Assembly (NCBI GenBank): GCA_038059415.1
Contig: JBBTJN010000033.1
Coordinates: forward strand, 9,330-73,329
DNA: 64,000 bases
DNA from: Elusimicrobiota bacterium
Lineage (GTDB): Bacteria > Elusimicrobiota > Elusimicrobia > UBA1565 > UBA9628
Direction of reading: 5' to 3'
The translations under genes were made by a program, and so were the position numbers. Below, one piece after another: positions 5,248 to 59,027 of the stretch; the first letter of the stretch is position 1, and each line of letters starts with the position of its first letter. The notes below the pieces were generated by a model. That model had not been told where the DNA came from. It saw only the letters and a list, made by a program, of their open reading frames with translations, and searched no databases.

Positions 5248-5386
5248 CTATGATGGCGGGCATAGTCGGCCTCAGGCGCGTCCGCTACACTTACTGGTCA
5301 AGGGAGGGACAGTGGAGCAGCGGACGATCCGTCTGAATTTCGACTTGAGCTTCGTGTACGGCCCGCGCACCTGGCGCCTGCCGATC

Positions 5387-5980
5387 ATGGCGGCGATGCT
5401 GTTGGCGTCCGTCGGCGAACTCAACTCCGAGAGCGTGGTTCTGACCACCTATTACCCCGCGCCCTCCGGCGTGTACACAAGCATGATCACCACGGGATCT
5501 ACGATACTTGCTCGTAATTCGAACAGTGTTGTTATCAATTCGTTGGGCACGGCGCCTGTATCCAATGCTAACCTCAAGTTGGGTGTCAATGGGGGGGTGG
5601 CCGTGGGATCATACTGGAACCAGACTGCCCCCACCCCGGCCAATGGGCTCATCGTCAGCGGCCGCGTGGGCGTGGGGATTGCGACGCCGGCCACAGCTCT
5701 CCATGTCGTCGGCCACACCTATATCAACGCTTCAGGTTGCAGCAGTTGGCCTATCACGACAACATCAGCAGACGGCATTGTGTGCATGCCTGGTTCTTAC
5801 GCGACTTTCCAACCCGGCGTCTACATCGAGGGTACCACCTACAACTACTTGCCGCTCCCCCGTCTGACAGACAGCGGTGGTACTGTGCGAAAATTTGCCG
5901 GAATGACCGCGGCCAGTTTGCCTGTTGCTATGCCCATCAGCTATGACCCAGGTATCAAGGCCTTGTGTTGCCCTAAATGA
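5387..5980 (+). CDS. Hypothetical secreted protein, in a noticeably lower-GC segment.
   Basis: The track ORF 5060..5980 overlaps the rSAM gene at its 5' end. The internal start MAAMLLASVGE (an alternative GTG lies at 5312) gives a hydrophobic N-terminus. Motifs such as GRVGVGIATPATALHV recur in fibre-like hypothetical proteins. Confidence 0.3.
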   Translation: MAAMLLASVGELNSESVVLTTYYPAPSGVYTSMITTGSTILARNSNSVVINSLGTAPVSNANLKLGVNGGVAVGSYWNQTAPTPANGLIVSGRVGVGIATPATALHVVGHTYINASGCSSWPITTTSADGIVCMPGSYATFQPGVYIEGTTYNYLPLPRLTDSGGTVRKFAGMTAASLPVAMPISYDPGIKALCCPK

Positions 5981-11118: not shown

Positions 11119-11217
11119 TTCTCATCTATGGCATAAAATAGAATGGCCGGGACGAGGTTAAGCCGCTACCATAAGCACAGTCTCCCTGCTTTTCGACTTT
11201 CACTCCAAGAGGAACCC

Positions 11218-11865
11218 ATGAGCGCATGCGACCAAGCCGAAATAGCCTTTGATCTCGACGAGAAGCTATACCCTCTCGAGGCCGTCCAGAACGCAATCTA
11301 CGTCTTCACCGACCGCGCTTATGTGCGTGTTGAGCGCTGCGCGCCGGAACGACTCCAGGTCGTCATGACGCTCAAGGCGGGGGCTGCGCCGTCCGCTCAG
11401 AGCGCGTTGAAGGGGGAGTTCGACAACGAGCTCATTCACCAGATTCTCCGTCAGCGCGTCTCAGATTCCAACCAGAAGATCCGCGAGTACATCGTGACCA
11501 AGGCGCTGGTCTCGGCCCTGCCGTCCTCACCAGCGGCCGGATCGTCGCCGGTCGCCGCGCCTGGCGAAGCGCCCTGTCCGGAATGCGTCGAGGCGGAGGG
11601 GGCGCCACCCGCGCCGCCGCAGATCGACGCGGCCCTGGAGAAGGAAATCGACCGGCTCCTGGCCGAGATCGAGAGCGGCGACGGCGCGGCCGATCCCTTG
11701 GGCGTGTCCGTTCCTTGGGAAGAGGCGTTCGGTGCCAAAAGCGGAAGTCCGAAGAAGACAATCTCCGTTCCAGACAAGACAAAGGCTCCCGCCAAGGCGA
11801 CGGTTTCCTCCAAGTCTCGGGCGTCCGCGAGGGTGAAGGCGCCCGCCAAAGAGAAGCGTTCATGA
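11218..11865 (+). CDS. hxsD: HxsD-like protein of the His-Xaa-Ser system, with an extended Pro/Ala/Lys-rich tail.
   Basis: The position is right: immediately upstream of, and overlapping, the HxsB rSAM. The conserved core FDNELIHQILRQ resembles the LLNDYxLRE signature of HxsD. An AAGAGGAA RBS precedes the internal ATG at 11218. Confidence 0.5.
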   Translation: MSACDQAEIAFDLDEKLYPLEAVQNAIYVFTDRAYVRVERCAPERLQVVMTLKAGAAPSAQSALKGEFDNELIHQILRQRVSDSNQKIREYIVTKALVSALPSSPAAGSSPVAAPGEAPCPECVEAEGAPPAPPQIDAALEKEIDRLLAEIESGDGAADPLGVSVPWEEAFGAKSGSPKKTISVPDKTKAPAKATVSSKSRASARVKAPAKEKRS

Positions 11866-13358
11866 GCATCGCCAGGGCCGTCGACATCCCCGTCCTCAAC
11901 CCCGTCAAGACGGGCCCTTTCCGTTTTCGCAAGGTGTCAGGAAAGATGCTGATCACCAACGACTTGGGCCGTCACCATCTTCTTGATGACGCGCAGTTCC
12001 GGCAATTCGTCACCGGGGAGCTCAGGCCGGGCGATGTCCTGTACGAGAGGCTCAAGGTCGACGGCTTCATCCGCGACCAGATAGATTTCGACGCCGTGGC
12101 CGGCGTGTGGGCGCGGCGCAATAAGTTCCTCTGGCACGGCCCGGGCCTCCATGTGATCGTGACGACGCTGCGCTGCAACCACCGCTGCCTCTATTGCCAC
12201 GCCAGCGCGCTCGGCATGGCCGACGCCTCCACGGACATGACCGAGGAGACCGCGCGCAAGGTCGTCGACCGCATTTTTGAAAGCCCCAGCTCCGCGATCA
12301 CCATCGAATTCCAGGGCGGCGAACCGCTGGCGAACTGGCCCGTGGTCAAGTTCGTCGTCGAGTACGCGACCGAGAAGAACAAAATCGCGGGAAAGAGCCT
12401 CTGGCTGAACCTCGTCACGAACTTGAGCCTCATGGACGACGAGAAGCTTGATTGGCTGCTCAAGCGCGGCGTGAACTTCTGCACGTCCATCGACGGGCCG
12501 GCCGCCCTTCATGACCGCAACCGCCCCTGGAGCAAGGGGGCCAGCCACGCCGAGACGGTCAAGTGGTTCAAGAAGATCAATGCAAAGACTCGGAACAAGA
12601 TGTTCCGCATCGACGCGCTGTTGACGGTGACGCGCCTGTCGCTGAGCCAGCCGCGAGAGATCGTGGACGAATATGTTGCGCTTGGCTCGCGCGGCGTGTT
12701 TCTCCGGCCTCTGAATCCCTACGGGATGGCTGTGGCCACTTGGAACAAGATCGGCTACGGTCCGGAAGAGTTCTTGGTCTTTTACGCGAAGGCCCTCGAC
12801 CGGGTACTTGAGGTCAACAAGAAGAGAGGTCTGCGACAGCCTTTTTTTGAGCAAACGGCGCGTCTCTATTTGGCCAAGATCCTGACCGACGACGACCCGA
12901 ACTACCTAGACCTGCGCTCTCCTTGCGGGGCGGGCATAGGTCAGATGGCCTACAACTGGGACGGCTCCGTCTTCACCTGCGACGAGGGCCGCATGCTCAA
13001 CCGGATGGGCGACGATACCTTCCTCATCGGCAAGGTCGGGGAAGGCACCTATGCTGAGTCGGTCGGGCATCCCGTCGTCCGGGCGCTGGCAATCGCCTCC
13101 AACCTCGACAATCAAGTCGAGTGCTCTAAATGCGTCTACAAGCCCTACTGCGGCATTTGCCCAGTCCAATGCTACAAGGACCAAGGCGATATTACTGGAC
13201 GCATGCCGACCAACTCCCGCTGCAAGATCAGCATGGGCATCCTCGACCTCCTGTTCGAGCGCCTTCAGGACAAGCGTAACGAGCGTATCTTCCGATCTTG
13301 GTTGAAAAAGAGGAAGGGCGAGAATGAAAAAGTCGCCGCGCTCTACCAGCGCGGTTAA
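11862..13358 (+). CDS. hxsB: His-Xaa-Ser system radical SAM/SPASM maturase, HxsB-like.
   Basis: The rSAM motif is CNHRCLYC. The C-terminal SPASM domain carries CGAGIG...FTCDEG and CSKCVYKPYCGICPVQC. It sits immediately upstream of the His-Gly/Ala-Ser repeat precursor. Its start ATG overlaps the hxsD stop (ATGA). Confidence 0.8.
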   Translation: MSIARAVDIPVLNPVKTGPFRFRKVSGKMLITNDLGRHHLLDDAQFRQFVTGELRPGDVLYERLKVDGFIRDQIDFDAVAGVWARRNKFLWHGPGLHVIVTTLRCNHRCLYCHASALGMADASTDMTEETARKVVDRIFESPSSAITIEFQGGEPLANWPVVKFVVEYATEKNKIAGKSLWLNLVTNLSLMDDEKLDWLLKRGVNFCTSIDGPAALHDRNRPWSKGASHAETVKWFKKINAKTRNKMFRIDALLTVTRLSLSQPREIVDEYVALGSRGVFLRPLNPYGMAVATWNKIGYGPEEFLVFYAKALDRVLEVNKKRGLRQPFFEQTARLYLAKILTDDDPNYLDLRSPCGAGIGQMAYNWDGSVFTCDEGRMLNRMGDDTFLIGKVGEGTYAESVGHPVVRALAIASNLDNQVECSKCVYKPYCGICPVQCYKDQGDITGRMPTNSRCKISMGILDLLFERLQDKRNERIFRSWLKKRKGENEKVAALYQRG

Positions 13359-13370
13359 GAGGATCGTGAA

Positions 13371-13823
13371 ATGGATGACATGGACAAGAAGAAGGACGCT
13401 TCCAAAGGGGAATTCGTTCCGCGAGTCGCCAAGGACCTCTCCCGTTTTTTGACCAGCGAGGAGGGTAAGATTCTTAAAAAAGACGTGCTCAAGGCGGCGG
13501 CGGTTCTGGGCATCATCGGGGCGGCCATCATGCGCGCGGAGGATCTGCTTGCGCAGTCTCACACCAACGCGATCCACAACTCCGGAAACGCCCCGGCCCG
13601 GCATAGCAGCCACAGCTCTCACGCCAGCCATGCGTCTCACGGCAGCCACGGCAGCCACGGCAGCCACGGCTCGCACGGGAGCCACGGCTCACATGGGAGC
13701 CACGGCTCGCACGGGAGCCACGGCTCGCACGGGAGCCACGGCTCCCACGCCTCGCACGGCTCCCACGGATCCCACGGATCCCACGGATCCCACGGTTCAC
13801 ATGGCAGTCACGGGCAATGGTGA
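13371..13823 (+). CDS. hxsA: His-Xaa-Ser repeat precursor protein, HxsA-like.
   Basis: 150 aa. It has an N-terminal region with a hydrophobic helix ([16 protein letters not shown]). The C-terminus is (H-S/G/A-S)n, about 25 tripeptide repeats, [20 protein letters not shown]...GSHGQW. Confidence 0.8.
13602..13811 (+). repeat. About 23-25 tandem 9-nt repeats (CAC GGN AGC and variants) encoding His-Gly/Ala-Ser.
   Basis: Directly visible as cacggcagccacggcagccacggctcgcacgggagc... Boundaries are approximate. Confidence 0.85.
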
Positions 13824-43114: not shown

Positions 43115-44499
43115 GCGCTCTCAACGTGGCGCCGGCTCGCGCCTTGCTCGCGGAAGGCCGGCTCGAGGAGTGTGCGAGGGAGATCTCGCGGCTGATCGCC
43201 TCCAAGCCGGCATGGCCGAAGGGCTCCCTCATCGGCTCCGTCCAGGGCCTACTGGCCGCTCGCGGCTGGACCATTGCCGTCGCGTCGCCGCGGGGCAAGG
43301 TGGTTCTCGCGGTCAGGCGGATGGAAGACGAGAGTGTCCTCGGCGCGTACATACTCGAGTACCGGGCCGCGCTGGATTGCGCGCGGAGCGTGTCCGTTCC
43401 CGCGCTGTTCCATCTGCGCCGCCTGCCGGGCAGCGCCGGGACGCGCCTGAGCGCGGAGGAGAAGCCGGAGCTCGAAAATCTATCGACCGGGTTGTGCCTT
43501 CTTTTCGAATCTTTGCGCGGGCGGTCCGGCGGCGGCACCGGCTTGATCGTTCAGGCAGAGACGCACGAGGCGGGCCGCGAAGGCCTCGAGAGGATTCTTC
43601 GCATCACGTCGGCCTGCAATCATCGCTGCCCGTTCTGCTTCGTTCCCGTTAACGCGGGCGGTGCCGATCGCGCGGAGCTCGAGCGCGAGCTCGACGCGCT
43701 GGCTCCCGTCCTTGGGCCGCACGGGACCGTGGTGATCTCGGGCGGCGAGCCCACCGTGGACCCGCGCCTGGTGGACATCATCGCGTCTGCGCGTCGCCGC
43801 GGGCTGCGGCGCTTCGTGCTGCAGACCAACGGGGCGGCCCTCGTCCGTCCGGGCCTGATGGAAAGCCTGCTCGCGCTCGGCGTGGAGGGTTTCGACGTTT
43901 CCTTCCATGCGCACAAGCCCAGTTCCCATGCCCGAATCACCGGGAACCGCGACACCTTTCCCAAGGTCGTCGAAGGCCTGGGTCGGCTGCTGGATTCGGG
44001 ACGGTGCCGGGTGACGGCGTGCGTGCTGGTCAACGCTTGGAACTATCGGGAGTTGCCCCAATTGGTGGGGTTCTTGGGGAAGTTGTCCCGGGAGCGGCTC
44101 AAAAAGGGAACGGGCCGTCTCGAGGTCGCCTTCTCCTTCATGAACGGGGCCGGCATGAACACCGCTGCGCGCATGGCCGTCGATCTCAAGAAGGCCGCGC
44201 CCTATCTGCAACGGGCGCTCGCGCGCTGCCATCAAGAGGGCCTCGTGGCCCAACGCTTCACGGGTGAGACCGCCATGCCGCCCTGCCTCGTCGCCGACTC
44301 GGCGGCGTACGCGGGCGACATCGAGTTCTCTCAGGAGCGCGTGCGTTACGCGGAGGACTTCCGCGGAGAGACCGGCAACGTCGGGCGCGCCAAGAGCCCC
44401 TCATGTAGGAAGTGCGTGTACGACTTGCGATGCATGGGCGTGCCGGCGGAGTACGCCAGACGGTTCGGCCTGGGAGCGCTGTCATGCAGAACCAAGTAA
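43111..44499 (+). CDS. Radical SAM protein with an N-terminal domain of about 170 aa.
   Basis: The motifs are CNHRCPFC and SGGEPTV. The tail is CRKCVYDLRCMGVPAEYARRFGL. The GTG start overlaps the upstream stop. It is a paralog of the 56357 gene. Confidence 0.65.
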   Translation: MSALNVAPARALLAEGRLEECAREISRLIASKPAWPKGSLIGSVQGLLAARGWTIAVASPRGKVVLAVRRMEDESVLGAYILEYRAALDCARSVSVPALFHLRRLPGSAGTRLSAEEKPELENLSTGLCLLFESLRGRSGGGTGLIVQAETHEAGREGLERILRITSACNHRCPFCFVPVNAGGADRAELERELDALAPVLGPHGTVVISGGEPTVDPRLVDIIASARRRGLRRFVLQTNGAALVRPGLMESLLALGVEGFDVSFHAHKPSSHARITGNRDTFPKVVEGLGRLLDSGRCRVTACVLVNAWNYRELPQLVGFLGKLSRERLKKGTGRLEVAFSFMNGAGMNTAARMAVDLKKAAPYLQRALARCHQEGLVAQRFTGETAMPPCLVADSAAYAGDIEFSQERVRYAEDFRGETGNVGRAKSPSCRKCVYDLRCMGVPAEYARRFGLGALSCRTK

Positions 44500-45488
44500 G
44501 ACCGCTCCGGCTCGACCTCATCCTGACTCGGATCTGCCCCATGGCCTGCGTGTACTGCCATATGGATCACCGGCCGGGCGTGATGAGCCCGCGCGTGTGG
44601 CGCAAGGCCGTGGACCTCCTTCTCAGGGAGCAAGGGCCTCTGGAACTCCAGCTCATGGGGGGCGAGCCGCTCGTCGAGTATGATCTCGTGCGGGAGATTT
44701 TGACCTACGCGGCCGCGGCGGCCGCCAAAAAGAGGAAAGCCCTCGGCCTCGGGGTGACCACCAATGGGCTGCTCCTCACCGCGAAGCGCGCTGCCGAGCT
44801 CCGGCGCCTCGGAGCCCGCGTGATGCTGAGCTTCGACGGCGACAAGGACGTGCAGACCGCGCAGCGGACTCAGCGGGCGGGCGGGGAAAAGTTCTGGACG
44901 GTGCTGAAGCGCAATTTGGCGGCGTTGGGGGCCTCCGGAAATCCCTTCTTCGTCAACATCGTCGTCACCCCCGAGTCCGCCGGACGATTGTCCCAAGGCG
45001 TCACCTTCCTGCTTGGTCAAGGAGTGCGCGCCTTCCAGATCAGCTACGCCTTGGGTGTTTTTTGGGATGAGGAGCGCTTGAATATCTTGGAAGAGGAACT
45101 GCGCAAGAGCTACCGACAGGCCGACGCGGCTCTTCCACCTGCGGAGGTGTTCAACCGCCGCAACGACGCCGAGCCGGTGCTGCTGAGCCCGCAGCATGTC
45201 GTTGATACAGACGGGCGGCTGTATGTCGGAACCTCGATCGTGCTCGAGCATCTCTGGCCGGCTCTGCACCGGTCTTTCCTGGTCGGCGCCGTCGGCAAGC
45301 TGCGCAGCTTTCCTGGGCGAGGCGTGGGGCCGCAGGAGCAGCTTCGCCGCCTGCGCGCCGCGGATGTCGCCGGCGAGGCGCGCCGGACCATGCGCAACAA
45401 TCTGGCGGTCGGGAAACGGATGCGCGAGTTCTGGAAGAAGGAGATACTCCTCGCGCCGGGATCCGATTATCGCAAAGGAGGCCGCTGA
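44484..45488 (+). CDS. Radical SAM protein.
   Basis: The motifs are CPMACVYC and MGGEPLV. The internal ATG at 44484 (MQNQVRPLRLDL...) is placed just upstream of the Cys motif. Confidence 0.65.
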   Translation: MQNQVRPLRLDLILTRICPMACVYCHMDHRPGVMSPRVWRKAVDLLLREQGPLELQLMGGEPLVEYDLVREILTYAAAAAAKKRKALGLGVTTNGLLLTAKRAAELRRLGARVMLSFDGDKDVQTAQRTQRAGGEKFWTVLKRNLAALGASGNPFFVNIVVTPESAGRLSQGVTFLLGQGVRAFQISYALGVFWDEERLNILEEELRKSYRQADAALPPAEVFNRRNDAEPVLLSPQHVVDTDGRLYVGTSIVLEHLWPALHRSFLVGAVGKLRSFPGRGVGPQEQLRRLRAADVAGEARRTMRNNLAVGKRMREFWKKEILLAPGSDYRKGGR

Positions 45489-47242
45489 TGTCTTTCCAGG
45501 CTCAGGTGGCGCACCTGTTGGCGGGCGCGAAATCCACGGCGGCCCTTGCGAAGCTGCTGGGCGTGTCGGGGGCGAAGGATGGGTGGACCTTGCGGTCGTT
45601 GTGCGGAGTCGGCGCGACGAATGTCCGCGTCGGCCTAAGCAAAGGCAAGATGCGCCTCGCGTTCTATCTTCTGCCCAAGGGCGCGCCGAACGCCGTCGCC
45701 GAGACCGCCGGGCTGTCCTTGACTGCCGAGGGAGATCCGGGGCCGGCCATGAGAAGGCTCGTCGCAGCTGTGGCCGGACGGCTCGGCGCGCGCACCCTGG
45801 AGGACGTCCTCAAAATAATCGCGGACGATCCCGAGACCTTCGTCGAGATGGTGCCGGGCGGAGGCCCGGAGAGCGGCCTGCGCGTGCCCCTGGCCGCGGG
45901 CCCGATCAACCTTCTCGAGGCCGGCTGGCGCAACTTCTTCGCCGATCAGGACTATGAGGTCCTTCTCGGCTATCCTGAGCTGAAGATGAACAAGACGATC
46001 TACGCGCGCTACTCCGACCGCGAGTGCCTGTACTCGTGGTCCGGCAACGACCCTCGCAAATGGTCGTTCTTCGCCTATCCGGTGCGGGTTCCCTCCGACA
46101 GCTTCGGGGCGACGGTGTTTCGCACAGGGATCGTGATGGAACTTGAGGAGCGCGACATGGTCCTGGGCGCAGTCGAGAAGGCTGACGCCTTGGTCGAGTC
46201 GGTGGCCAAGGCCTCGGTCGGCTCCGGCGCGGATTACGTCGTCTTCAACCACTTCTGCACCTCAATTGTCATGGGCGAGGACTCCGGGTCGATTACGCGC
46301 CGCATCGAGGAAGCCAGCGGACTGAAAACCGTCTGCTGGAGCCACGGCGATCGCGATCAACTCAACAACTTCGGCGAGCACTTCAAGCAGTTGTTCGCCA
46401 AGCCCGGATTCTTTGACGCCCCCGTCGAGAAATCGTCCGTGAACCTTTTCCATTTCCCGACTGACTTCCGTGAGGCGGAGTTGGTGCCGCTGCTCGGGGA
46501 GATGGGAGTGAAGGCCAACACGCGACTGTTCCCCGATGTGGATTTCCCGTCCATGGAGAGGATTTCAAGCGCCGCCGCCCATGTCTTCTGCGCGGCGACC
46601 TCCTACCAGTCCAAGCTTCCGGAACTCCTGGCCGGCGGGCCCCGTCCGGTGCTGACGACGCGGGCGCCGTACGGGATCGAGGATACCGGAGAGTGCCTCA
46701 AGGCCATCGCGAAGGCCGCGGGACGAGAGAAGGCCTTCGCGGCGGCCTGGAAGAAGAAGCTCTCGGCGCTCAGACCCGCCTGGGAGGACATGACGAAGCT
46801 GGCCCGGGGGTTCCGGCTTGCTTTCGTCGTGTCGGAGACGACCTTGCCCATGCTCTGGGAATTGCGCCACGGGCAGGGCGCGCCCATGATGCGTATGATC
46901 GAGGAGATGGGATTTGGCGTCGATATCCTCTACTACGACCCGCACAACGAGAGGCCGGATATCAATGCGGACTCCCGCTGCGCGAAGCTCCAAACCTTCC
47001 GTACGCCGCGGGATCTGACGCGGGCCTTGCGCGAAGGTGATTTCCGTGCGGTCTATTCGGATATCTTCTTCGACTGGAGGATCAGCGCGTCGGGCAAAGC
47101 GCGCTTCTCCAGCAAGGACTTCGAGATGGGGCTGGACGGGGCGCTGCGGTCGCTGCGTCGGCTGCTCGCGGTTTGCCGTCTGCCTTTCTATGACCGCTAC
47201 GGCAGCCATTTGGCCGGGCTTGCAGGGAGGGAACTTGCCTAA
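45488..47242 (+). CDS. Nitrogenase component-1-like subunit, B-type, copy 3.
   Basis: It is a paralog of the 40132 gene, with NHFCTSIVMGEDS and [29 protein letters not shown]. Confidence 0.7.
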   Translation: MSFQAQVAHLLAGAKSTAALAKLLGVSGAKDGWTLRSLCGVGATNVRVGLSKGKMRLAFYLLPKGAPNAVAETAGLSLTAEGDPGPAMRRLVAAVAGRLGARTLEDVLKIIADDPETFVEMVPGGGPESGLRVPLAAGPINLLEAGWRNFFADQDYEVLLGYPELKMNKTIYARYSDRECLYSWSGNDPRKWSFFAYPVRVPSDSFGATVFRTGIVMELEERDMVLGAVEKADALVESVAKASVGSGADYVVFNHFCTSIVMGEDSGSITRRIEEASGLKTVCWSHGDRDQLNNFGEHFKQLFAKPGFFDAPVEKSSVNLFHFPTDFREAELVPLLGEMGVKANTRLFPDVDFPSMERISSAAAHVFCAATSYQSKLPELLAGGPRPVLTTRAPYGIEDTGECLKAIAKAAGREKAFAAAWKKKLSALRPAWEDMTKLARGFRLAFVVSETTLPMLWELRHGQGAPMMRMIEEMGFGVDILYYDPHNERPDINADSRCAKLQTFRTPRDLTRALREGDFRAVYSDIFFDWRISASGKARFSSKDFEMGLDGALRSLRRLLAVCRLPFYDRYGSHLAGLAGRELA

Positions 47243-48618: not shown

Positions 48619-49449
48619 ATGAGCATGGAGAACAACATCGTCGTCTTTGGGAAGGGCGGCATCGGAAAATCCACGATCTCGTCGAACTTAAGCTCGATCT
48701 ATGCCCTCCAGGGACTCAAGGTCCTGCACGTGGGCTGCGATCCCAAACACGACAGCACGTTGGGCCTCGTTGATGGCGAGCTGATCGAAACTTTCATGGA
48801 GAAGTACACGCGGATATTCGGGGTGCGCGATCATGCCGAGCTCAAGCCCTCCGACCTCATCGTCAAGGGCCGCCTCGGCATCGACTGCGTCGAGGCCGGC
48901 GGACCGGAGCCGGGCGTGGGATGCGCGGGACGGGGAATCTCCCTGATGCTCGAGGCGTTGCAGGACCTGGGCGTGTTGAAGGCGGGCGGCTATGACGCGC
49001 GAATATTTGATGTTCTTGGAGACGTCGTATGCGGCGGCTTCGCCGCGCCTCTGCGCAAGGGCTTCGCCGAGAAGATAGTCATCGTGGTTTCGGAGGAGCT
49101 CATGGCTCTGTACGCGGCCAACAACATCGCCAAGTCCGTTAAAACGTACTCCTCGAACGGCGTTTATCTCGCGGGCTTGGTGGCCAACCTGAAGGACGGC
49201 AAGGTGGAACGCAAGAAGCTCGAGACCTTTGCTAGAACACTGGGGACCCGAATACTGGAGTTTGTGCCGCGCGATCCGGCCGTGCGCAAGGCGGAATTCG
49301 CCCGCAAGAATACGGTCGTCGAGATGGCGCCCAAGAGCCCTTTCGCGAAGAGCATCACGTCCCTGGCGGCGAAGGTTCGTGCCATCCGCAGAGAGGACTG
49401 CCCTATTCCCACACCCATGGATGATCGCCAATTCTACAAGGGCTGGTGA
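48619..49449 (+). CDS. Stand-alone NifH-like ATPase (nitrogenase iron protein / BchL / CfbC family).
   Basis: 276 aa. The P-loop is VVFGKGGIGKST. The cluster Cys pair is GCAGRG and [12 protein letters not shown]. It has 60-70% identity to the N-terminal domains of the two fusion proteins. Confidence 0.85.
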   Translation: MSMENNIVVFGKGGIGKSTISSNLSSIYALQGLKVLHVGCDPKHDSTLGLVDGELIETFMEKYTRIFGVRDHAELKPSDLIVKGRLGIDCVEAGGPEPGVGCAGRGISLMLEALQDLGVLKAGGYDARIFDVLGDVVCGGFAAPLRKGFAEKIVIVVSEELMALYAANNIAKSVKTYSSNGVYLAGLVANLKDGKVERKKLETFARTLGTRILEFVPRDPAVRKAEFARKNTVVEMAPKSPFAKSITSLAAKVRAIRREDCPIPTPMDDRQFYKGW

Positions 49450-49497: not shown

Positions 49498-50700
49498 GTG
49501 ACCGCGGTTTTCTACTACGGACTCTTCGTGATCCTAGCCTCGGTCATTTCGTTCCAGGACTGGAGGGAACGCAAGATTCGCAACAGCCTGATCGTCATGG
49601 GATTGCTCGCCTGCGGGGCGGGCTTCTGCCTGCTCCTGACGAACAGCCTCATAGGCGCGAGCCATGCGCGCCTCTGGCTGCTGGGAGAATACTATCTTCC
49701 TCTGGGCTACTATCCCAGAATGATCGTCCATGTCTTTCTAAGCCTCGTGGCCGGCGTGGGCTTGTGGCGCTATTCGATCTGGCCGGCCGGGGACGCGAAA
49801 TTCTTCACGCTGGCGGCGTTCTTCACCGCCCTGATCGATCCGAACATCCCCGGCTTCCCCTATTTACTTTTCCTGGTGCTTCTCATCAACATCTTCGTGC
49901 CGGCGGGCCTGGTTTTCGTAGTCGAGACTCTCGCAAATCTCGCGCTGAGCATCCCGCGCCTGCGCACGGTCAATTGGAGCGGGCGGCTTAAAGCCTGCGC
50001 AGAGGTGGTCGCCATTCGCGCCGGGGAGATGTGGCCCTATCGCGTCGAGTATCTGATCCTCGGCGTGAACCTCTTAGCCTTTTTTTTCGCGCTGCAGATG
50101 ACGGTGTTTCATTACAGCAAGCTCGTCAGGGAGCCTTGGGGGTCGCTGGCTATTTTCGTGCTCATGTTCGCCTGCTGGGGCAGCATGGTGAAAGTGCTGC
50201 GAAATAAGAAGGTCGGGGTCGTGGTGTTTACGGTCCTCTGTGTCGTGGTGCTGATGGGCGTGTTCCACCTGCACTGGGCCGTCAGGGAGGGCTTCTTCGC
50301 GGCCCTGCGCATGGTCTTTAATTTCGGGATGCTTCTCTCCGTGGGCAGACTGCTCTTTTCCTGGATCATCGAGCGCGACAGCCTCCGGGAGCTTTGCGCG
50401 TCGGACCTCAAATACGGCGACATCCTCTCTGATTTGACCTGGGCTAAAATCAGCGCGGAGAGCGACCTCTCCGGGAAAATGGGTGAGCGCTACGTCGACG
50501 GCCTGTCCCATAGCGACGTCGCGACGCTGAAAGCCTGGCTGGCGAGCCGAACGACGGCGGACTACAACATCTATCACACGATCCCGTTCGCGCTGTGGAT
50601 ATTTCTCGGAACGCTTTGGACCATTTCATATCGGGGCAGCGTCGTCACGGCCCTCGCTCCGTATTTCATCCGAGCTCAGGAGGTCCTTTGCAAAAGATAA
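49498..50700 (+). CDS. Polytopic membrane protein with an A24-type (prepilin-peptidase-like) aspartyl peptidase signature.
   Basis: It has multiple hydrophobic helices. A first Asp context (SFQDWRERKI) and the second-Asp GxGD-like motif WPAGDAKFF resemble the GGDVK/GxGDxK motif of A24 peptidases. GC content is lower than in surrounding genes. Confidence 0.45.
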   Translation: MTAVFYYGLFVILASVISFQDWRERKIRNSLIVMGLLACGAGFCLLLTNSLIGASHARLWLLGEYYLPLGYYPRMIVHVFLSLVAGVGLWRYSIWPAGDAKFFTLAAFFTALIDPNIPGFPYLLFLVLLINIFVPAGLVFVVETLANLALSIPRLRTVNWSGRLKACAEVVAIRAGEMWPYRVEYLILGVNLLAFFFALQMTVFHYSKLVREPWGSLAIFVLMFACWGSMVKVLRNKKVGVVVFTVLCVVVLMGVFHLHWAVREGFFAALRMVFNFGMLLSVGRLLFSWIIERDSLRELCASDLKYGDILSDLTWAKISAESDLSGKMGERYVDGLSHSDVATLKAWLASRTTADYNIYHTIPFALWIFLGTLWTISYRGSVVTALAPYFIRAQEVLCKR

Positions 50701-52991
50701 CGATTTTCGGTAAAGGCGGCATCGGCAAGTCCACGTTGTCGGCCAATCTGGCGGCCGTCTACGCCAAGCGCGGCCTGAAGGTCATCCTCGTGGGCTGCGA
50801 CCCCAAGCATGACACGACCATCTCTCTGACGGACGGCAAGCCCATCCGAACCGTAGTCGAGCATTCCGCCTTCATGGATTCCTCGGGCGGAGAGCTCTCC
50901 GGGATTCTGGTGCGCGGCCGGTTGGGCGTCGACTGCGTGGAGGCGGGCGGGCCCGAGCCCGGCATCGGCTGCGCGGGCCGGGGCATCGGCCGGACGATCA
51001 GCTTACTCGAGGACGCGGGAGTCCTTGATGCGGGCCGCTACGATGTCGCTCTCTTCGACGTGCTGGGGGACGTGGTCTGCGGAGGATTCGCCGCTCCCCT
51101 TCGGGAGGGCTTCGCGGACAAGGTCGTGATCGTGACCTCCGAGGAGTTGATGGCTCTCTACGCGGCCAACAATATCGCCCGCGCCATCCGCAACTACAGC
51201 GAGAACGGCGTCGCCCTGTGCGGCCTGGTTGCCAATCTCCGCGACCTGGACGCTGATCGCGCGAGCGTGTCGCGATTCGCCGAGCAGATCGGGACCGGTG
51301 TCCTCTCCTTCTTCTCCCGCGAGGCCGCCGTCCGCGAGGCGGAGTACAAACGCGTCACCTTGGTCGAGCACGCGCCCGAAAGCGAGCTGACCCGGAAGAT
51401 CGAGGCGTTGGCAGGGAGCCTCCTGAGCTTCGATCGCAGGACGGTGAGCGTGCCCAACCCTCTTACGGATGAACGCTTCAACGAGCTGTCCCGGCAGGCG
51501 TTCATCGTCAGTTCCCCCCAGTTCGGCGCGGCTCGTCCTCCTCGTCCCAGGGTTGCGCCGGTTGCTCCGCCGCCGCAGGCGCGCTCCGTCTCGCCGGTCC
51601 GGCCCGATATGGAAAAGGACATGGCTTGGCAGTCCAAGCTTTGGGAGGGGAACCCGGGCATGAACTCCCAGGTGTGGGGGGCGCAAGATCAGTGGCGGCG
51701 TTTCTACTGCGACTTTGAAACGCGCCGCAACGTCAGGATGTCCATGGAGGGAGGGACCCCCATGGTCAACGTCTGGCATCAGGACCTTGAGTGCACCTAC
51801 TCCACGCCGAACTTCGAGGACGGGAGCCTGCCGGCCTTCTACAAATTCCCCTGGCCCCGCGCGGAAAGGAACAACGATAACGGCGAGGACCGGCCTGATG
51901 ACATGTCCTTGAGCACCATCATGACGAACATCAAGGATCTCGACGTCATCCACGGCGGCGGCAAGAAGCTCGATGAGGCCATCGGCGAGGCAGTGAAGAA
52001 CGCGAAGGGACGCGCGCAAGCCATCATCGTCCACTCGACCTGCATTCCGACCGTCATCGGAGACGACGCCGAGGCCGTCGTCAAGCGCTGGCAGGCGCGC
52101 ACGAGGATCCCGATCGTCTACATGAATCCCGCCGAGAACAGCTGTCAGGAATTGGACGTATGCTTGATGCTCTTCAAGAAGATGCAACAGGCTCCTTCGT
52201 TCGCTAAGATCGCACGGCGCAAGAACACAGTGAATCTGGTGGGCTTTCCCCCCGGTCCGGCTCTCAAGGAGCTCGTAAGCCTGCTGCATGACATCGGCAT
52301 CCGGGTCAACTCCTGCGTGATGCCGACGCTGAGCCTGGAGGTCGCCCGGCGTTACCTCGCCGCCGAAGTCCAAGTCCTCTATCCGAACGCGGCCTATGCG
52401 GCGACTTATAAGGAATTTTTCGAGCCCATGCCCATCCGCACCCTCAAGCCCGGCGCGCCGTATGGATTTGAGGGGACGAAGAAGTGGCTGGAGACTTTGG
52501 CAGGCGAGTTCGGCTTGAAGAGAAAGGTCCGCTCCGCCTACGGGCAGGCGGCGAAAACTTTGACCGCCGATTGGGAGGCCGGTCGCCGCGAGGCGGCTGG
52601 CCAGGGCCTGGCCTTCGTCGTGGACGCCTATCACGTGGGGCGCCTGGCCGACCCGGCTCTGACCTGGGCGATTCCGGTGCTGAGGTTCCTGCGCGAGATG
52701 GGATTCGGCGTGGAGATATTGTGCTACGGCCGGGCCCTAAAGCAGGCGCCCCATTTTACCCCCTTCAGCGCTCCAGCGGAGCTCGAAGCGCTGCTGCTTG
52801 AGGGCCCGTTCCAGGCCGTCTACTCGGAATACGCCTATGACTCGAGGTTGGCCCGGGCCGGGAAGGCGCAGTTCTCTCTCGAGGATTTCGAGATGGGCCT
52901 GGGCGGGGCCGTGCGCACCTTGCGCAAACTGGGCGGGATTTGCCGCTGGCCGTTCCAGAGGAGATATGCGAAATACATGGGGATGTTGTAA
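50688..52991 (+). CDS. Fusion protein: NifH-like ATPase joined to a B-type nitrogenase component-1-like domain, second copy.
   Basis: A TTG start gives LQKITIFGKGGIGKST and GCAGRG...VCGGFA. The C-terminal domain carries WRRFYCDFE, DVIHGGGKK, VHSTCIPTVIGDD and AVYSEYAYDSRLARAGKAQFS. The track ORF starts 31 codons earlier inside the upstream gene. Confidence 0.75.
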   Translation: MQKITIFGKGGIGKSTLSANLAAVYAKRGLKVILVGCDPKHDTTISLTDGKPIRTVVEHSAFMDSSGGELSGILVRGRLGVDCVEAGGPEPGIGCAGRGIGRTISLLEDAGVLDAGRYDVALFDVLGDVVCGGFAAPLREGFADKVVIVTSEELMALYAANNIARAIRNYSENGVALCGLVANLRDLDADRASVSRFAEQIGTGVLSFFSREAAVREAEYKRVTLVEHAPESELTRKIEALAGSLLSFDRRTVSVPNPLTDERFNELSRQAFIVSSPQFGAARPPRPRVAPVAPPPQARSVSPVRPDMEKDMAWQSKLWEGNPGMNSQVWGAQDQWRRFYCDFETRRNVRMSMEGGTPMVNVWHQDLECTYSTPNFEDGSLPAFYKFPWPRAERNNDNGEDRPDDMSLSTIMTNIKDLDVIHGGGKKLDEAIGEAVKNAKGRAQAIIVHSTCIPTVIGDDAEAVVKRWQARTRIPIVYMNPAENSCQELDVCLMLFKKMQQAPSFAKIARRKNTVNLVGFPPGPALKELVSLLHDIGIRVNSCVMPTLSLEVARRYLAAEVQVLYPNAAYAATYKEFFEPMPIRTLKPGAPYGFEGTKKWLETLAGEFGLKRKVRSAYGQAAKTLTADWEAGRREAAGQGLAFVVDAYHVGRLADPALTWAIPVLRFLREMGFGVEILCYGRALKQAPHFTPFSAPAELEALLLEGPFQAVYSEYAYDSRLARAGKAQFSLEDFEMGLGGAVRTLRKLGGICRWPFQRRYAKYMGML

Positions 52992-54577: not shown

Positions 54578-55336
54578 TTGACGACGGACACGACGCTTTC
54601 CAAGCACGTGCTTTTCCTCGTGCCTTGGCACATCGGCAACAGGCTTGATGTCACGGTCCACGCGGCCCGCCTCGCGCGAAATATTCGCGTTTTCCTGACG
54701 GAGGAGCCCGCGCTCACCCGGCGCCAGTTCGAGGGCGACTTGGGTGTCGACTGCAAGGGGAAGGAATTCCTGCTCATCCCCGAAAAGGAGAATCCGCGGT
54801 TCCTTAAGGAAGTCCTGGCCAGGCTGCGCACGGAGGACGTGGCCTTGATCTGCTCGGGCGGCATTCCCTGTTTTATCGATCCCGGCGCCTGGCTGGTCAA
54901 GAGCCTACGCGAGCGCGACATGCCGATGAGGGCATTGGCCGGCGCCTCGATCCTGTCTACGATGCTGTCGCTGAGCGCGATGGACTGGACGGGGACGCAT
55001 AATCGCGGGACCTTCGTCATCTATCTCGCCTCCGGTCCCGAGGGCGACGTGCACGCCTCCCTGCTTGAGGCCGTTCGCCGGGAGGACGAGCCGGTGTTCA
55101 TCTTCCTGGCCCTGACCCAGTTCCGGGAGTGCATCACGAACATCGAGCCCGTCATCGGCAAGCGCCTCGTCAGCACCTTCTTCGACCTCACCAAGAAGCC
55201 GCCTGGGAAGTACCCTTACGCGGACCGGGTGATGACCAAGGGCTGTCGCGAATGGCTGAAGGAGGCGGATCGCATCCCGTGGAAGGAGATTTCGGACGTG
55301 GCGCTGATGGTCCATCCTCGCGAGGCCGCGGCATGA
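54578..55336 (+). CDS. Tetrapyrrole-methylase-fold (TP_methylase, RsmI-like) SAM-dependent methyltransferase family protein.
   Basis: LFLVPWHIGNRLDVTVHAARLARNIRVFLTE and ICSGGIPCFIDPGAWLVKSLRE...ALAGASILSTMLSLSAMDW parallel RsmI/CobA-type motifs (LVSDAGTPLISDPG...). Confidence 0.55.
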   Translation: MTTDTTLSKHVLFLVPWHIGNRLDVTVHAARLARNIRVFLTEEPALTRRQFEGDLGVDCKGKEFLLIPEKENPRFLKEVLARLRTEDVALICSGGIPCFIDPGAWLVKSLRERDMPMRALAGASILSTMLSLSAMDWTGTHNRGTFVIYLASGPEGDVHASLLEAVRREDEPVFIFLALTQFRECITNIEPVIGKRLVSTFFDLTKKPPGKYPYADRVMTKGCREWLKEADRIPWKEISDVALMVHPREAAA

Positions 55337-55385: not shown

Positions 55386-56360
55386 ATGACCGAGCCGCGC
55401 CGGGTCGAAATCCATCTTGGCACCCTCTGCAACAATCTTTGCGTCTTCTGCATGAGCAGCATGAACCGCGACCACCATGAGTCCTGGGCTACGCTTGACC
55501 GGGTTCAGGAGGAGCTCCGGCACTTCCGGGAGAAGGGTTGCAGCTCCGCCGGCTTCCTCGGCGGAGAGCCGACCGTCTATCCCCACATCGTCGAATCGAT
55601 CGCCTATGCGAAGTCGCTCGGCTATGACCGGATCGCCCTCTGCACCAACGCAACCCGCATGTCCGACCCGGCCTTCTGCGCCGCCTTGGTGGAGGCGGGC
55701 CTCACGCGCGTGACCCTCTCCATCCACAGCCACCGTGCCGAGGTTGAGGACGAGCTCATCACCGGCGTACCCGGCAACCTCGTTCGCAAGATCGCCGCGA
55801 TCAAGAATCTGTTTGCGCTGAAGCTCAAGGGGAAGTTGCCGGGAAACATCGCGCTCAATCCGGTCCTCTGCCGTCCCACCTTGGACGAGATGGAGGAGTA
55901 CGTCGCCTTCTTCGGGGCGATGGGCTTGGAGGATATCCGCTTCAATTATATCTGGCCCCAAGGTGAGGTGGGCCGCGACCGCCGCTGGATACCTACCTTC
56001 AAGGAAGCCATGCCGAAGATCGTGCGCATCATGCTGCTCAACGAGAAGCGCTTGCGCAAGCACCTGACCTTCGGGGGAATTCCGAAGTGCGCGCTCCTCC
56101 TGGCCGGGGTGAAGGGCCCGACGCTCGAGTATCTTGCGGCCAAGTATCTCGACGAAGCGGGCTTCGATCCCGACAACGACGTGAGCATGGCCACCAAGAA
56201 TGGCCCGATGCCGGACCGGTTCGTCTGGCAGAAGGTCAAGAAGGATACCCTCAAGGCCAAGGGGCCGAGGTGCGCCCGCTGTGCACACCACGACCGCTGC
56301 GAGGGGGTTTGGGGCAGCTATGGCGAGCTCTACGGATTCTCGGAGTTGACGCCTCTATGA
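55386..56360 (+). CDS. Radical SAM protein.
   Basis: The motifs are CNNLCVFC and LGGEPTV. The tail is CARCAHHDRCEGVWGSYGELYGFSEL. Confidence 0.75.
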   Translation: MTEPRRVEIHLGTLCNNLCVFCMSSMNRDHHESWATLDRVQEELRHFREKGCSSAGFLGGEPTVYPHIVESIAYAKSLGYDRIALCTNATRMSDPAFCAALVEAGLTRVTLSIHSHRAEVEDELITGVPGNLVRKIAAIKNLFALKLKGKLPGNIALNPVLCRPTLDEMEEYVAFFGAMGLEDIRFNYIWPQGEVGRDRRWIPTFKEAMPKIVRIMLLNEKRLRKHLTFGGIPKCALLLAGVKGPTLEYLAAKYLDEAGFDPDNDVSMATKNGPMPDRFVWQKVKKDTLKAKGPRCARCAHHDRCEGVWGSYGELYGFSELTPL

Positions 56361-57589
56361 CGCCGCCAAGCGGGGTGAGCGTCGTGTTGGCCCGCCACGG
56401 CTGGGTTCTGCGCCGCCGCGTGCGTGCGGAGCTCATCCGCTTTACGGTGAGCCGGGCCGGCGAGGGCCGCGCCTTCTGCGAATTCTCCGGCGAGCTTTCC
56501 TCGGGCGCGCTGCGGTCCTTGACCCCGGGCGCCCGGCTTCAGACCGCTCTTGCTCCCGGCGTCCGCCTGAAGGCCTCGGAAACAAAGGGGATCGCGGAGC
56601 TGCAAGCCGAGCTCGGCCGACTCTTGGAATTCTTGCTGCGATCCTCGCCGGGTCCCGCGCGGGGCACGGCCCTGGCCGAGAGCCATGAGGGCCACCAGGG
56701 CCGTGATCTTCTCCTCCGGACGACCTTCGCCTGCAATCAGAAATGCCCGTTCTGCTTCGTGCCCATGACGGGGAAGGGCGCGGACTTCGACGAGATCGAG
56801 CGCGAGCTAGACGCCCAGGCCCGCAGGGCAGGCCCGCGCGGGGAGCTGACCCTCTCCGGAGGCGAGCCCGCCTCAGACCCGCGCCTGCCCGCGATCATCG
56901 CCTCGGCGCGCCGTCGGGGTTTTCGCCGGTTCGTGCTGCAGACCAACGGCGTGTACCTGACGCGCCCTGGGCTGCTGGAGAATCTGATCGCGCTTGGCGT
57001 GAAGTCCTATTTTTTCTCGCTCCACTCCCACAAGGCCGCCGTCTATGACAAGGTCACCGGCAGCCGCGGCCAATATCCCCGCGCCGTGGCGGGCCTTTCC
57101 CGACTCCTGCGCAGCCCCGGTTGTAGCGTCGCCGTGAACGTGGTGGTTAACGCGCATAATTATCGTGACCTGCCCGGGCTAGTCGATTTCGTCGCGAGGC
57201 TCGGCCGTCCGAGCCTGTACTTTTCCATGATCAACGAGCGCGGCCATCAGAAGGCCCCATCCTGGACGGTCGCGCTGGAGGAGGCCGCGCCTTATCTGCG
57301 ACAGGCGGTCGCGCGCTGCCGCAAGGAGGGACTCTCCATCTCCCGCTCCGGCGGCGAGAGTTCCTTCCCGGTCTGCCTGTTTGATGAGCCCGCCCGCCAC
57401 GCGTCGCAACGGCCCCTGCCTCAGGAGCGCGTGCGCTATGCGGAGGATTTCTCGGGGGAGGCCGGCTTCATCGGTCGGGCCAAGCCTCCGTCCTGCCGCG
57501 CATGCCCCTACGACGCCCGCTGCGTCGGAGTTCCCGCGCAATACGCCCGCCTTTACGGCTTGGCGGCGCTGCGCATGGAGGCGAAATAG
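56357..57589 (+). CDS. Radical SAM protein with an N-terminal domain. It is a paralog of the 43111 gene.
   Basis: The motifs are CNQKCPFC and SGGEPAS. The tail is CRACPYDARCVGVPAQYARLYGL. The ATG overlaps the upstream stop (ATGA). Confidence 0.65.
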   Translation: MTPPSGVSVVLARHGWVLRRRVRAELIRFTVSRAGEGRAFCEFSGELSSGALRSLTPGARLQTALAPGVRLKASETKGIAELQAELGRLLEFLLRSSPGPARGTALAESHEGHQGRDLLLRTTFACNQKCPFCFVPMTGKGADFDEIERELDAQARRAGPRGELTLSGGEPASDPRLPAIIASARRRGFRRFVLQTNGVYLTRPGLLENLIALGVKSYFFSLHSHKAAVYDKVTGSRGQYPRAVAGLSRLLRSPGCSVAVNVVVNAHNYRDLPGLVDFVARLGRPSLYFSMINERGHQKAPSWTVALEEAAPYLRQAVARCRKEGLSISRSGGESSFPVCLFDEPARHASQRPLPQERVRYAEDFSGEAGFIGRAKPPSCRACPYDARCVGVPAQYARLYGLAALRMEAK

Positions 57590-58346: not shown

Positions 58347-59027
58347 TTGAGCACGGATCAAAATCAAATCGTCGCCCTTTTCGCCCGGACTCCTCCTTTC
58401 GCAGGAGCGTCCAGGGCTGATATCGCGGCCTTGGCCGCGGGGTGTTCGCTTTACCGATTCGCGCCCAAGGCGCAGGTGTTCGCCGAGGGCGATCGGGCCA
58501 CGGCGGGTTGGATGATCCTCTCTGGCCGCGTGCGCATATTGGTCTTCGTGGACGGCGCGCGCACGCTTCAAGCCGAGTTGCTCGGGCCCGGAGAAATGTT
58601 CGGTTTGTATTGCCGTCTCGCAAGCCGGATACCCTATCCCTGCACCGCCGTGGCGGACGGCCCGCTCACCGCGGTGCGCATACCGGACGGGGCCTTCGAG
58701 GCTTTGGCCCGACGATCGCAGGGTGTCGCGCGCTGCGCTTTGGAGCGCTGTGCCGGGCGCATGCGCTTGATTTTGGGACTTGTCCGCTTCGGCAGGGAGA
58801 GCGTGCGCGCGCGCATCATCGAGACTTTGCTCTCTTTGCGGGCCCGCTTCGGCGACGAGATTCCGGCCACGCGCCACGAATTGGCGGCCTGGGTGGGCGC
58901 CTCCCAGGAGACCGTGTTCCGCGGTCTGGCGGAGCTGCGCGCCCAGTCAATTTTGCGCACCGAGCGCGGGCGCGTCATCATACTGGACGCGAAGAAATTG
59001 CTCCGGGCGAGCGCGCGGAGGGAATGA
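58347..59027 (+). CDS. Crp/Fnr-family transcriptional regulator.
   Basis: A cNMP-binding beta-roll (GEMFGLY...) is followed by a C-terminal HTH (RHELAAWVGASQETVFRGLAEL). It has a TTG start. Confidence 0.7.
   Translation: MSTDQNQIVALFARTPPFAGASRADIAALAAGCSLYRFAPKAQVFAEGDRATAGWMILSGRVRILVFVDGARTLQAELLGPGEMFGLYCRLASRIPYPCTAVADGPLTAVRIPDGAFEALARRSQGVARCALERCAGRMRLILGLVRFGRESVRARIIETLLSLRARFGDEIPATRHELAAWVGASQETVFRGLAELRAQSILRTERGRVIILDAKKLLRASARRE

Follow-up and report, generated by a model that had tools for sequence, protein, structure and literature searches.

In Escherichia coli, the HXS antiphage system involves an HxsA protein that is cleaved at its N-terminus in a non-canonical manner, a step for which HxsB, HxsC and HxsD are needed, and that is then exported; the protease cutting HxsA was not identified (PMC13128918). 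In Elusimicrobia from groundwater, a role in tetrapyrrole reduction has been proposed, without evidence, for gene clusters containing group VI nitrogenase-like (NFL) genes, and group VI NFL proteins were still uncharacterised in 2026; no peptidase is mentioned in the Elusimicrobia NFL paper or in the 2026 NFL review (bioRxiv 10.1101/765248, PMC13474568). Our search of the literature for a link between prepilin or other A24-like peptidases and clusters of the radical S-adenosylmethionine (SAM), ribosomally synthesised and post-translationally modified peptide (RiPP), Hxs or NFL kind returned nothing relevant. Here, we report on a protein encoded in a 64,000-nucleotide stretch of contig JBBTJN010000033.1 from an Elusimicrobiota bacterium (this whole stretch is called here the window), namely the 400-amino acid product of the open reading frame (ORF) located at positions 49498 to 50700 of the plus strand, hereafter the target. 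Its gene, which starts with GTG and ends with TAA, encodes a polytopic and divergent homolog of the two-Asp peptidases of family A24. Relatives of the target are designated by P and four digits and the loci that we mapped by L and three digits. An earlier note, made from the letters of this DNA, had singled out the same gene as that of an A24-like candidate leader or precursor peptidase.

The explanation that we favour, with a probability of roughly 45%, is that the target would be an architecturally novel two-Asp membrane peptidase, remotely related to family A24, that is dedicated to leader removal or precursor processing in a type-4 Hxs system. Conservation, remote homology, predicted topology and gene neighbourhood together suggest a proteolytic activity, with the His-Xaa-Ser repeat precursor HxsA4 as the putative substrate and a candidate cleavage site in its leader. 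The target is not a pilus enzyme: it belongs to a large Elusimicrobial type-4 His-Xaa-Ser cluster (HxsD, HxsB, HxsC-like, HxsC4-like and HxsA4), to which group VI nitrogenase-like genes have been added in some lineages, that of the window included.

Conserved residues and architecture of the target family

The target gene is preceded by a GAAGG-type ribosome-binding site, and the N-terminus of its product, MTAVFYY, agrees with those of the homologs. A word-indexed search returned 90 close homologs, nearly all of about 400 amino acids and encoded by Elusimicrobia metagenome-assembled genomes (MAGs). An exhaustive HMMER profile search yielded 1466 representative relatives at E≤1e-3, of which 811 were retained at E≤1e-10 and 178 at E≤1e-30, most of them being ~370-420 amino acids long. 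When genomes were scanned with one genome per species, a relative was found in 219 of them, and the best 80 of these are all Elusimicrobiota or unclassified MAGs. No NCBIfam family was matched by the target and three relatives. The family, which comprises over 1400 representative clusters, has no curated Pfam or NCBIfam model and its members are mostly labelled 'hypothetical'.

The two motifs that the earlier note had compared to the catalytic pair of A24 peptidases, ISFQDWRERKIRN (with D21) and WPAGDAKFF (with D99), were both read as written in the translation of the target. In a 60-sequence alignment reaching down to 18% identity, residues D21, N29, W90, A97, G98, D99, K101, G335 and F364 are invariant and W367 and G371 are nearly so. 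Since both Asp residues are invariant over this range, D21 and D99 are the most conserved features of the family, and the conservation of the motifs is far above chance. The codon of D21, the first putative catalytic Asp, lies at 49558..49560 (+); this residue, also invariant in alignments A1, A2 and A6, opens a D-x5-I-R-N motif and is followed by a K/R-rich loop. D99, the second putative catalytic Asp, is part of the WPAGDAK motif (residues 95-101; 49780..49800, +), which aligns with GGDVK and is equivalent to the GGGDVK of A24 peptidases. The contexts of the A24 catalytic motifs, D...(I/L)P(N/D) and G-x-G-D-(A/V)-K, were recovered as D21-x5-I-R-N29 and A97-G98-D99-A100-K101, both of them invariant.

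About ten membrane helices were counted in the target by a Kyte-Doolittle scan and by the secondary structure of an AlphaFold2 (AF2) model, in line with the nine to ten announced by the earlier note. The positive-inside rule assigns the K/R-rich loops 20-29, 156-185 and 235-238 to the inside. With these loops on the cytoplasmic side, D21 and D99 are predicted to stand at the cytoplasmic ends of the transmembrane (TM) helices TM1 and TM4, respectively, and the soluble domain of the protein is predicted to be cytoplasmic.

The architecture of the target departs from that of PilD-type enzymes. Residues 1 to 145 (49498..49932, +) form an N-terminal A24-like core that includes TM1 to TM5 and both putative catalytic Asp residues, as delineated by the Pfam match, hhalign and a core profile. 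This core is followed by a family-specific insertion, not found in PilD-type enzymes, of ~215 amino acids (residues ~146-360; 49933..50562, +, for residues ~146-355), composed of an amphipathic K/R-rich stretch, four TM helices and the soluble domain. The latter spans ~70 amino acids (residues 292-361; 50371..50580, +), has a mixed strand/helix secondary structure in the AF2 model, carries the conserved residues G307 and W315 and the motif Y-x-D-G335-L, and gave no significant match to solved structures. After it comes a further TM helix, IPFALWIFLG (residues 362-378), whose counterpart in the alignments is the PFGPF helix at the end of canonical A24 peptidases. The PFALW motif of this last conserved TM helix (50584..50598, +), which contains the invariant F364, is the counterpart of A24 PFGPF in hhalign comparisons. 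Because a conserved A24-type last helix stands after the soluble stretch, the family-specific part is an internal insertion and not a C-terminal tail; the C-terminal soluble extension of about 120 residues described in the earlier note has to be replaced by a shorter soluble stretch within this insertion. The core of the target consists of TM1 to TM5 and of the last helix, with the insertion between them. The insertion is poorly conserved, G335 being its only invariant residue in the 60-sequence alignment, and most of the region is missing from the short relative P0090 (239 amino acids).

PF01478 (Peptidase_A24) is the sole Pfam family matched by the target, over residues 9-134 and profile positions 2-98 of 104, and no DiS_P_DiS domain was found. 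The same family is matched by 19 of 34 relatives (best E 8.7e-8), and the score of P0095, 29.4 bits, is above the gathering score of 26.5. When a profile of the 148-residue N-terminal core was run against 5.8 billion proteins, 76 were retrieved. Most of these are short (130-260 amino acids) and either have PF01478 among their precomputed matches or are called 'CpaA'; one is archaeal. In hhalign comparisons, the full-length family matched E. coli GspO alone, or a 26-sequence PilD-type alignment, only through the C-terminal PF(A/G) helix. Once residues 146-355 were excised, the family became colinear with the PilD-type A24 domain over 157 columns, D21 pairing with D135 (IDWDTFLIPD), AGDAK with GGDVK (D206) and PFAxW with PFGPF. 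The last-helix motif of A24 was found in this way as P363-F364-A-x-W367, with weak statistical support (probability ~5%).

Taken together, these comparisons suggest that the target is remotely related to A24 and resembles its short members of the CpaA/FlaK type, to which it adds a large internal insertion. The A24-like call of the earlier note holds at the level of remote homology, since more than half of the relatives tested match PF01478, P0095 exceeds the threshold and the core profile retrieves A24 proteins. A match to an unrelated transporter family or a lack of conservation of the Asp residues would have spoken against that call; A24 was the only family matched and, because D21 and D99 are invariant, the second objection does not apply either. 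A UbiA-type prenyltransferase or a transporter was also considered as an identity for the target and was dropped, because the sole family match is to A24 and the invariant residues are exactly those of the A24 motifs. It should be noted that a canonical PilD (PF06750 and PF01478) is present separately in Elusimicrobia, in locus L061 on the same contig as a relative of the target.

Some gene calls in the family are interrupted. In P0350 and P0076, which belong to a relative 96-98% identical to the target, the peptidase gene is apparently split: a 140-amino acid N-terminal fragment is called alone and the C-terminal fragment is joined to the start of the NifH fusion, which could reflect a frameshift, an assembly error or a pseudogene. 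Both proteins are listed with a longest contig of 34,851 bp (ENA), and it is from this identical length that the fragments are presumed to lie on one contig. Similarly, the target-family gene at L171:8001-9226, in a MAG of 31% GC, is called as two ORFs of 249 and 125 amino acids. The same 90% cluster contains a full-length protein of 409 amino acids, P0425, and some of the 'short forms' are therefore split genes and not true short proteins.

Genomic setting of the target family

The neighbours of target-family genes were mapped in 87 loci (83 non-redundant) with flanks of 10 kb, to which the following counts refer. At least one radical SAM gene, mostly on the same strand and flanking, was present in 84 of the 87 loci, at least three in 68 and at least five in 43, while NifH/NifDK-like genes were detected in 27-28. 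Given these frequencies, the constant partners of the family are the radical SAM genes and the NFL setting is a lineage-specific addition. The placement among radical SAM genes is on the same strand, often with overlapping genes, and spans GC contents from 31 to 65%; on a 31%-GC contig, the target-family gene comes after eight consecutive radical SAM genes. HxsB orthologs (>200 bits) were found in 46 of the 83 loci, with sharply bimodal scores (206-777 bits as opposed to ≤40 bits). A common order is HxsB, HxsC-like, target-family gene and HxsC4-like. In L043 and L047, for example, HxsB (432.6 bits, above the cut-off) and an HxsC-like protein (161.6 bits, below the cut-off of 267.9) precede the target-family gene. 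Radical SAM genes of the HemN-like and B12 kinds also recur nearby, as does a gene for a class V aminotransferase (cysteine-desulfurase-like); pilus assembly genes are absent from the recurrent neighbours of these loci. 

The window contains the same partners on a larger scale. A cluster extending from ~4.2 to 57.6 kb (~50 kb) holds at least 17 radical SAM genes, five NifD/K-like pairs, three NifH domains and one precursor. It is laid out as radical SAM genes up to ~27 kb, minus-strand NFL genes up to 38.8 kb and a plus-strand block from 38.9 to 57.6 kb that includes the target gene. Three of its genes score above the NCBIfam cut-offs for Hxs components: an HxsD-like protein (11143..11865, +; TIGR03976, 59.9 bits for a cut-off of 50), the radical SAM maturase HxsB (11583..13358, +; TIGR03978, 510.5 bits over residues 112-574 for a cut-off of 370), whose true start is probably near 11916, and the His-Xaa-Ser repeat precursor HxsA4, the proposed substrate (13371..13823, +; NF038313, 112 bits for a cut-off of 55). 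These genes sit 36-38 kb upstream of the target gene, in one continuous radical-SAM/NFL cluster. The target is the only polytopic membrane protein recognised among the cluster genes examined in the window.

The immediate neighbours of the target gene are nitrogenase-like. Upstream lies a stand-alone NifH-like gene of the group VI NFL type (48619..49449, +; PF00142, E 1.8e-81) and downstream a NifH-NifD-like fusion (50688..52991, +; PF00142 and PF00148). The ORF finder listed GTG 50595 as the start of the fusion. An AGGAGG sequence at 50678-50683 is followed, after four nucleotides, by a TTG codon at 50688, which is most likely the start; the gene would then overlap the target gene by 13 nt, suggesting translational coupling. 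The position between NifH-like genes reported by the earlier note is therefore correct for the window, and is peculiar to certain lineages when the family as a whole is considered. The NFL genes appear to be of group VI, as judged from their context and from the literature. In the window, as in L001 and L003, the target-family gene is embedded among NifH/NifD/NifK-like genes of the group VI type (Meheust et al. 2020) and radical SAM genes. NFL genes were also seen together with HxsA4 or HxsB on L022, L033, L083, L090, L098 and L126. The earlier note had also placed the target gene away from pilin genes, and a regular expression for prepilin-type motifs indeed found no match in any of the six frames of the window.

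Other genes of the cluster have unusual features. Two proteins of ~1160 amino acids, encoded at 6197-9667 (+) and 26609-30106 (-), consist of a NodU/carbamoyltransferase-like domain (~144 bits) fused to a radical SAM domain of the HxsC4-like kind at the C-terminus, and L007 has a separate carbamoyltransferase gene near its target-family gene. The NifD-like proteins carry unannotated N-terminal extensions of ~190-215 amino acids before the Oxidored_nitro domain and two long HxsC-like radical SAM proteins carry N-terminal extensions of ~200 amino acids, also unannotated; the NifD-like and HxsC-like genes with extensions lie at 40132-41820, 42970-44499, 45488-47242 and 56087-57589, all on the plus strand. 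A gene with a TP_methylase fold (54578-55336, +) has RsmI, a 16S rRNA 2'-O-methyltransferase, as its best match, which is weak (56 bits for a cut-off of 168), and matches no tetrapyrrole methylase. Finally, a Crp/Fnr-type regulator (Pfam cNMP_binding and HTH_Crp_2) is located just downstream of the cluster in L003 (16052-16702) and L004, and a gene that resembles such a regulator by eye occupies the equivalent position in the window (58347-59027, +).

HxsA4 as candidate substrate and competing explanations

HxsA4 of the window has a basic N-terminus, an FLTSEEGK motif and a 13-residue hydrophobic stretch, followed by (SHG)n repeats. Its leader is strongly conserved in the family: the basic N-terminus precedes the invariant F and S-E-E, then G (17 of 20 sequences) or A (3 of 20). 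After this G/A come ~9 charged residues, a Gly-containing hydrophobic stretch of 13-16 residues (LGIxG), an acidic stretch, H-x-N and the HxS repeats. Prepilin peptidases accept Gly and, less efficiently, Ala at position -1. The conserved G/A is a lead in this respect, with a candidate cleavage site located after S-E-E-[G/A]. In 19 of the 83 loci, an HxsA4-like ORF lies within 10 kb of the target-family gene, nearly always on the same strand, and it directly adjoins that gene in L012 and L106. Reciprocally, 7 of 22 long metagenomic HxsA4-anchored loci hold the target family; in two of these it stands at the outermost end of the retrieved sequence, which indicates that 10-kb flanks truncate these 20-50-kb clusters and that the true rate of linkage may differ from these counts. 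A regular expression for the leader motif matched nothing in L001, L003, L005, L007 and L171, and a search for HxS-repeat ORFs beyond those found with the leader model revealed none. A similar arrangement was observed at a distance from the main family. P0395, a PF01478-positive protein of 262 amino acids encoded at 42% GC in L172, has as neighbours, at 2-4 kb, HxsD, a radical SAM gene and an 83-amino acid HxsA-like precursor; the latter shows the same kind of leader motif (FLSNEDGRI) and a C-terminal HSSHSSY. The association across many loci and in this distant low-GC lineage is consistent with HxsA4 being the substrate of the target. The processing of HxsA proposed in the earlier note is thereby supported as far as neighbourhood is concerned, with HxsD, HxsB and HxsA4 in the window and co-localisation in the family, while the cleavage itself is inferred. 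The conserved G/A is present in HxsA4, but the pattern of a classical class III signal peptide is not.

These observations are compatible with the following mechanism. Cytoplasmic radical SAM enzymes, and in some clusters NFL enzymes, would modify the HxS repeats of HxsA4, and this precursor would engage the membrane through its short hydrophobic segment. Once the maturases have acted, the target would cut at the cytoplasmic face, after the S-E-E-[G/A] candidate site, and so take off the conserved basic leader; this removal would release the product or license its export. The cytoplasmic domain of the target might dock the leader or the maturases.

Several results weigh against this explanation. 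The match of the target itself to PF01478 is below threshold (E 0.0059, 17.5 bits for a gathering score of 26.5). The hhalign alignment of the excised family with the PilD-type domain is not significant (E 0.009, probability ~5%, i.e. 4.5%), and hmmsearch between the target family and Elusimicrobial PilD gave insignificant scores of at most 10 bits. When PDB sequences were searched with a profile of the family, noise only was returned (such as the L7/L12 C-terminal domain, E=2), and Foldseek found no PDB hit at E<0.8, either with the full-length AF2 model (pLDDT 78, pTM 0.62) or with the high-confidence model of the 239-amino acid short relative (pLDDT 88.6, pTM 0.85); FlaK was not retrieved with either model, TM-scores being ≤0.23. 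As Foldseek performs weakly on all-helical membrane proteins, its null result is not strong negative evidence. Regarding the substrate, only the 19 loci mentioned above, out of 83, have an HxsA4-like ORF in the 10-kb flanks, and in L001, a minimal NFL cluster, these flanks contain no HxsA4 and no HxsB. The HxsA4 leader also differs from a classical class III signal peptide in having acidic residues before the G/A and a short hydrophobic stretch (13-16 residues) that begins ~9 residues past it, compared with a class III helix of ~20 residues. In addition, the distant long variants P0164 and P0198 (L169 and L170; 460-550 amino acids; 72-73% GC), which retain WPAGDxK and the C-terminal YxDGL and PFA motifs, are not located beside radical SAM genes, their neighbours being a TPR protein or a DUF4932 protein. 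Lastly, the canonical HXS system of E. coli runs without a membrane peptidase of this kind.

A second recurrent family of the clusters is represented in the window by a secreted-type protein with the motif 'TLTTYYPAPxGxY', located by motif scan and ORF search at 5315..5980 (+, start approximate). Members of this TTYYPAP family are 210-320 amino acids long, match no Pfam or NCBIfam model and share a conserved junction, ...LGSE-TLTLTTYYPAP(Y/S)G(G/V)Y.... They were found in 26 of the 83 target-anchored loci and in 11 of the 22 long HxsA4-anchored loci, often as two or three tandem copies (L045, L047, L076) and also at L027:9331-9957, and their gene lies directly upstream of the target-family gene in L027 and L033 (offsets -655 and -845).

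This recurrence in both sets of loci, the tandem copies, the adjoining positions and a basic N-region that precedes a hydrophobic region of 12-15 residues and the strongly conserved junction would fit a target that is the dedicated peptidase of the cluster and cleaves, instead of HxsA4, a TTYYPAP protein or, for instance, a cluster enzyme with a long N-terminal extension. The junction, however, is placed beyond the hydrophobic region, at the trans side, where signal peptidase I would be expected to act and not a cytoplasmic-face Asp pair; no conserved Gly or Ala is found ahead of the hydrophobic region, and the family is missing from the distant cluster of L172, which has only Hxs components. 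We therefore regard a substrate of this kind as rather improbable. That the target is not, or not only, a protease is an unlikely explanation to which we nevertheless attach some weight. It could anchor or scaffold the radical-SAM/NFL machinery or its product at the membrane, or act as a conduit for export, with the Asp pair retained for binding or ion coupling. Consistent with such a role, the target was alone in being recognised as a polytopic membrane protein among the genes examined in the cluster of the window, four TM helices and a cytoplasmic domain are not needed for A24 catalysis, the structure searches gave no protease, and a dedicated accessory translocation has been proposed for E. 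coli HxsA (PMC13128918). By contrast, it is exactly the residues of the A24 catalytic motifs that are invariant over 18-76% identity, a pattern expected of an active enzyme, whereas the insertion is poorly conserved and largely missing in short relatives.

Two other explanations appear far less probable. The name 'Flp pilus assembly protein protease CpaA' is given by JGI to P0015, P0077 and several short relatives, a few members are called 'prepilin peptidase' by NCBI, and the family resembles CpaA/FlaK-type enzymes in the lack of DiS_P_DiS, as if the target were an ordinary Flp/Tad-type prepilin peptidase present in the cluster by chance. Such an identity is very hard to reconcile with a same-strand and often overlapping radical SAM setting that recurs in 84 of 87 loci across 31-65% GC, with the window and the recurrent neighbours being devoid of pilin-like motifs and pilus assembly genes, respectively, and with the presence of a separate canonical PilD. 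Equally improbable in our view is a function in a tetrapyrrole-cofactor pathway of the group VI NFL proteins, for example as a membrane enzyme or carrier for a hydrophobic tetrapyrrole. This possibility follows from the published interpretation of these proteins (bioRxiv 10.1101/765248, PMC13474568) and from the TP_methylase-fold and HemN-like radical SAM genes of the clusters. Most target-family loci, however, have no NFL genes, the target is not similar to prenyltransferases or tetrapyrrole enzymes, and the clusters carry genes of the peptide-maturase type and a ribosomal precursor; the TP_methylase-fold gene, whose best and weak match is RsmI and not a tetrapyrrole methylase, is poor evidence for such a pathway.

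We thus retain the dedicated processing of HxsA4 as the preferred explanation. A bolder version of it, which we consider unlikely, would have a dozen or more radical SAM enzymes and, in lineages such as that of the window, also group VI NFL reductases remodel HxsA4 in a giant ribosomal-peptide pathway, with the target as its leader peptidase or export gate. The processing function would extend A24-type two-Asp peptidases to a new architecture and to clients of a new kind, namely repeat peptides matured by radical SAM enzymes in place of pilins or flagellins, and so give them a role outside pilus and flagellum biogenesis. It would also provide a concrete candidate for dedicated N-terminal processing in His-Xaa-Ser systems, in which the cleavage is known from E. 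coli and the protease is not (PMC13128918). The most interesting lead, and one that is directly testable, is the location of the group VI NFL genes of Elusimicrobia within superclusters of the Hxs peptide-maturation type, which challenges the assumption of a tetrapyrrole cofactor. HxsA4, and not a tetrapyrrole, could be what the group VI NFL enzymes act on, in which case their substrate would be derived from a peptide.

Comparison with known systems

Presenilin and signal-peptide peptidase, GxGD enzymes of the same Pfam clan as A24, carry an Asp residue on each of two adjacent TM helices, that of the second helix being part of a G-D motif, and act on membrane-anchored hydrophobic segments. By analogy, HxsA4, with its Gly-rich hydrophobic LGIxG stretch, would be suited to intramembrane cleavage as performed by presenilin-type enzymes. 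The target differs from these enzymes in that it has no YD or PAL motif and no Pfam or Foldseek match to them. The peptidase-containing ATP-binding cassette (ABC) transporters (PCAT, family C39) of RiPP and bacteriocin systems offer a functional analogy only: they are membrane-embedded and cluster-encoded, and they cut the leader at the cytoplasmic face in a step coupled to release or export. A PCAT combines a Cys protease with an ABC transporter and is unrelated in fold and catalytic type to a polytopic two-Asp peptidase; the target has no ATPase and HxsA4 no double-glycine motif.

Within family A24, the PilD/GspO enzymes (A24A) have the same three motifs as the target, in the same order once the insertion is removed. 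They differ by an N-terminal Cys-rich DiS_P_DiS/methyltransferase domain that the target does not have, the similarity is statistically insignificant, and Elusimicrobia retain a separate bona fide PilD. In layout, the target resembles TadV/CpaA and the archaeal FlaK/PibD (A24B), which, like it, start directly with the TM helix of the first Asp, without DiS_P_DiS. The D-x5-(I/L)-x-(N/D) and G-D-x-K motifs, the terminal PF(G/A) helix and the link to PF01478 are also alike, as would be the location of the active site, predicted to be at the cytoplasmic face. These enzymes are ~170-250 amino acids long, whereas the target reaches ~400 owing to the 215-residue insertion before the last helix, and it has WPAGDAK in place of GxGD(A/V)K. 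Its partners are radical SAM and Hxs genes, with no pilin, flagellin or Tad genes nearby, and in the case of FlaK no structural match was obtained by Foldseek.

The cluster of the window itself can be compared to HxsABCD of E. coli. HxsA4 is a small leader-plus-repeat peptide that has no peptidoglycan-binding domain, and the canonical four-gene HxsD-B-C-A architecture is not matched by the cluster. Because the system is widespread in Elusimicrobia and not sporadic, a role in defence cannot be assumed. The window likewise encodes HxsD, HxsB and an HxsA-type precursor; the E. coli system has four genes and no membrane peptidase, whereas here ~50 kb combine the radical SAM genes and NFL reductases with the target (Li et al. 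2026, PMC13128918).

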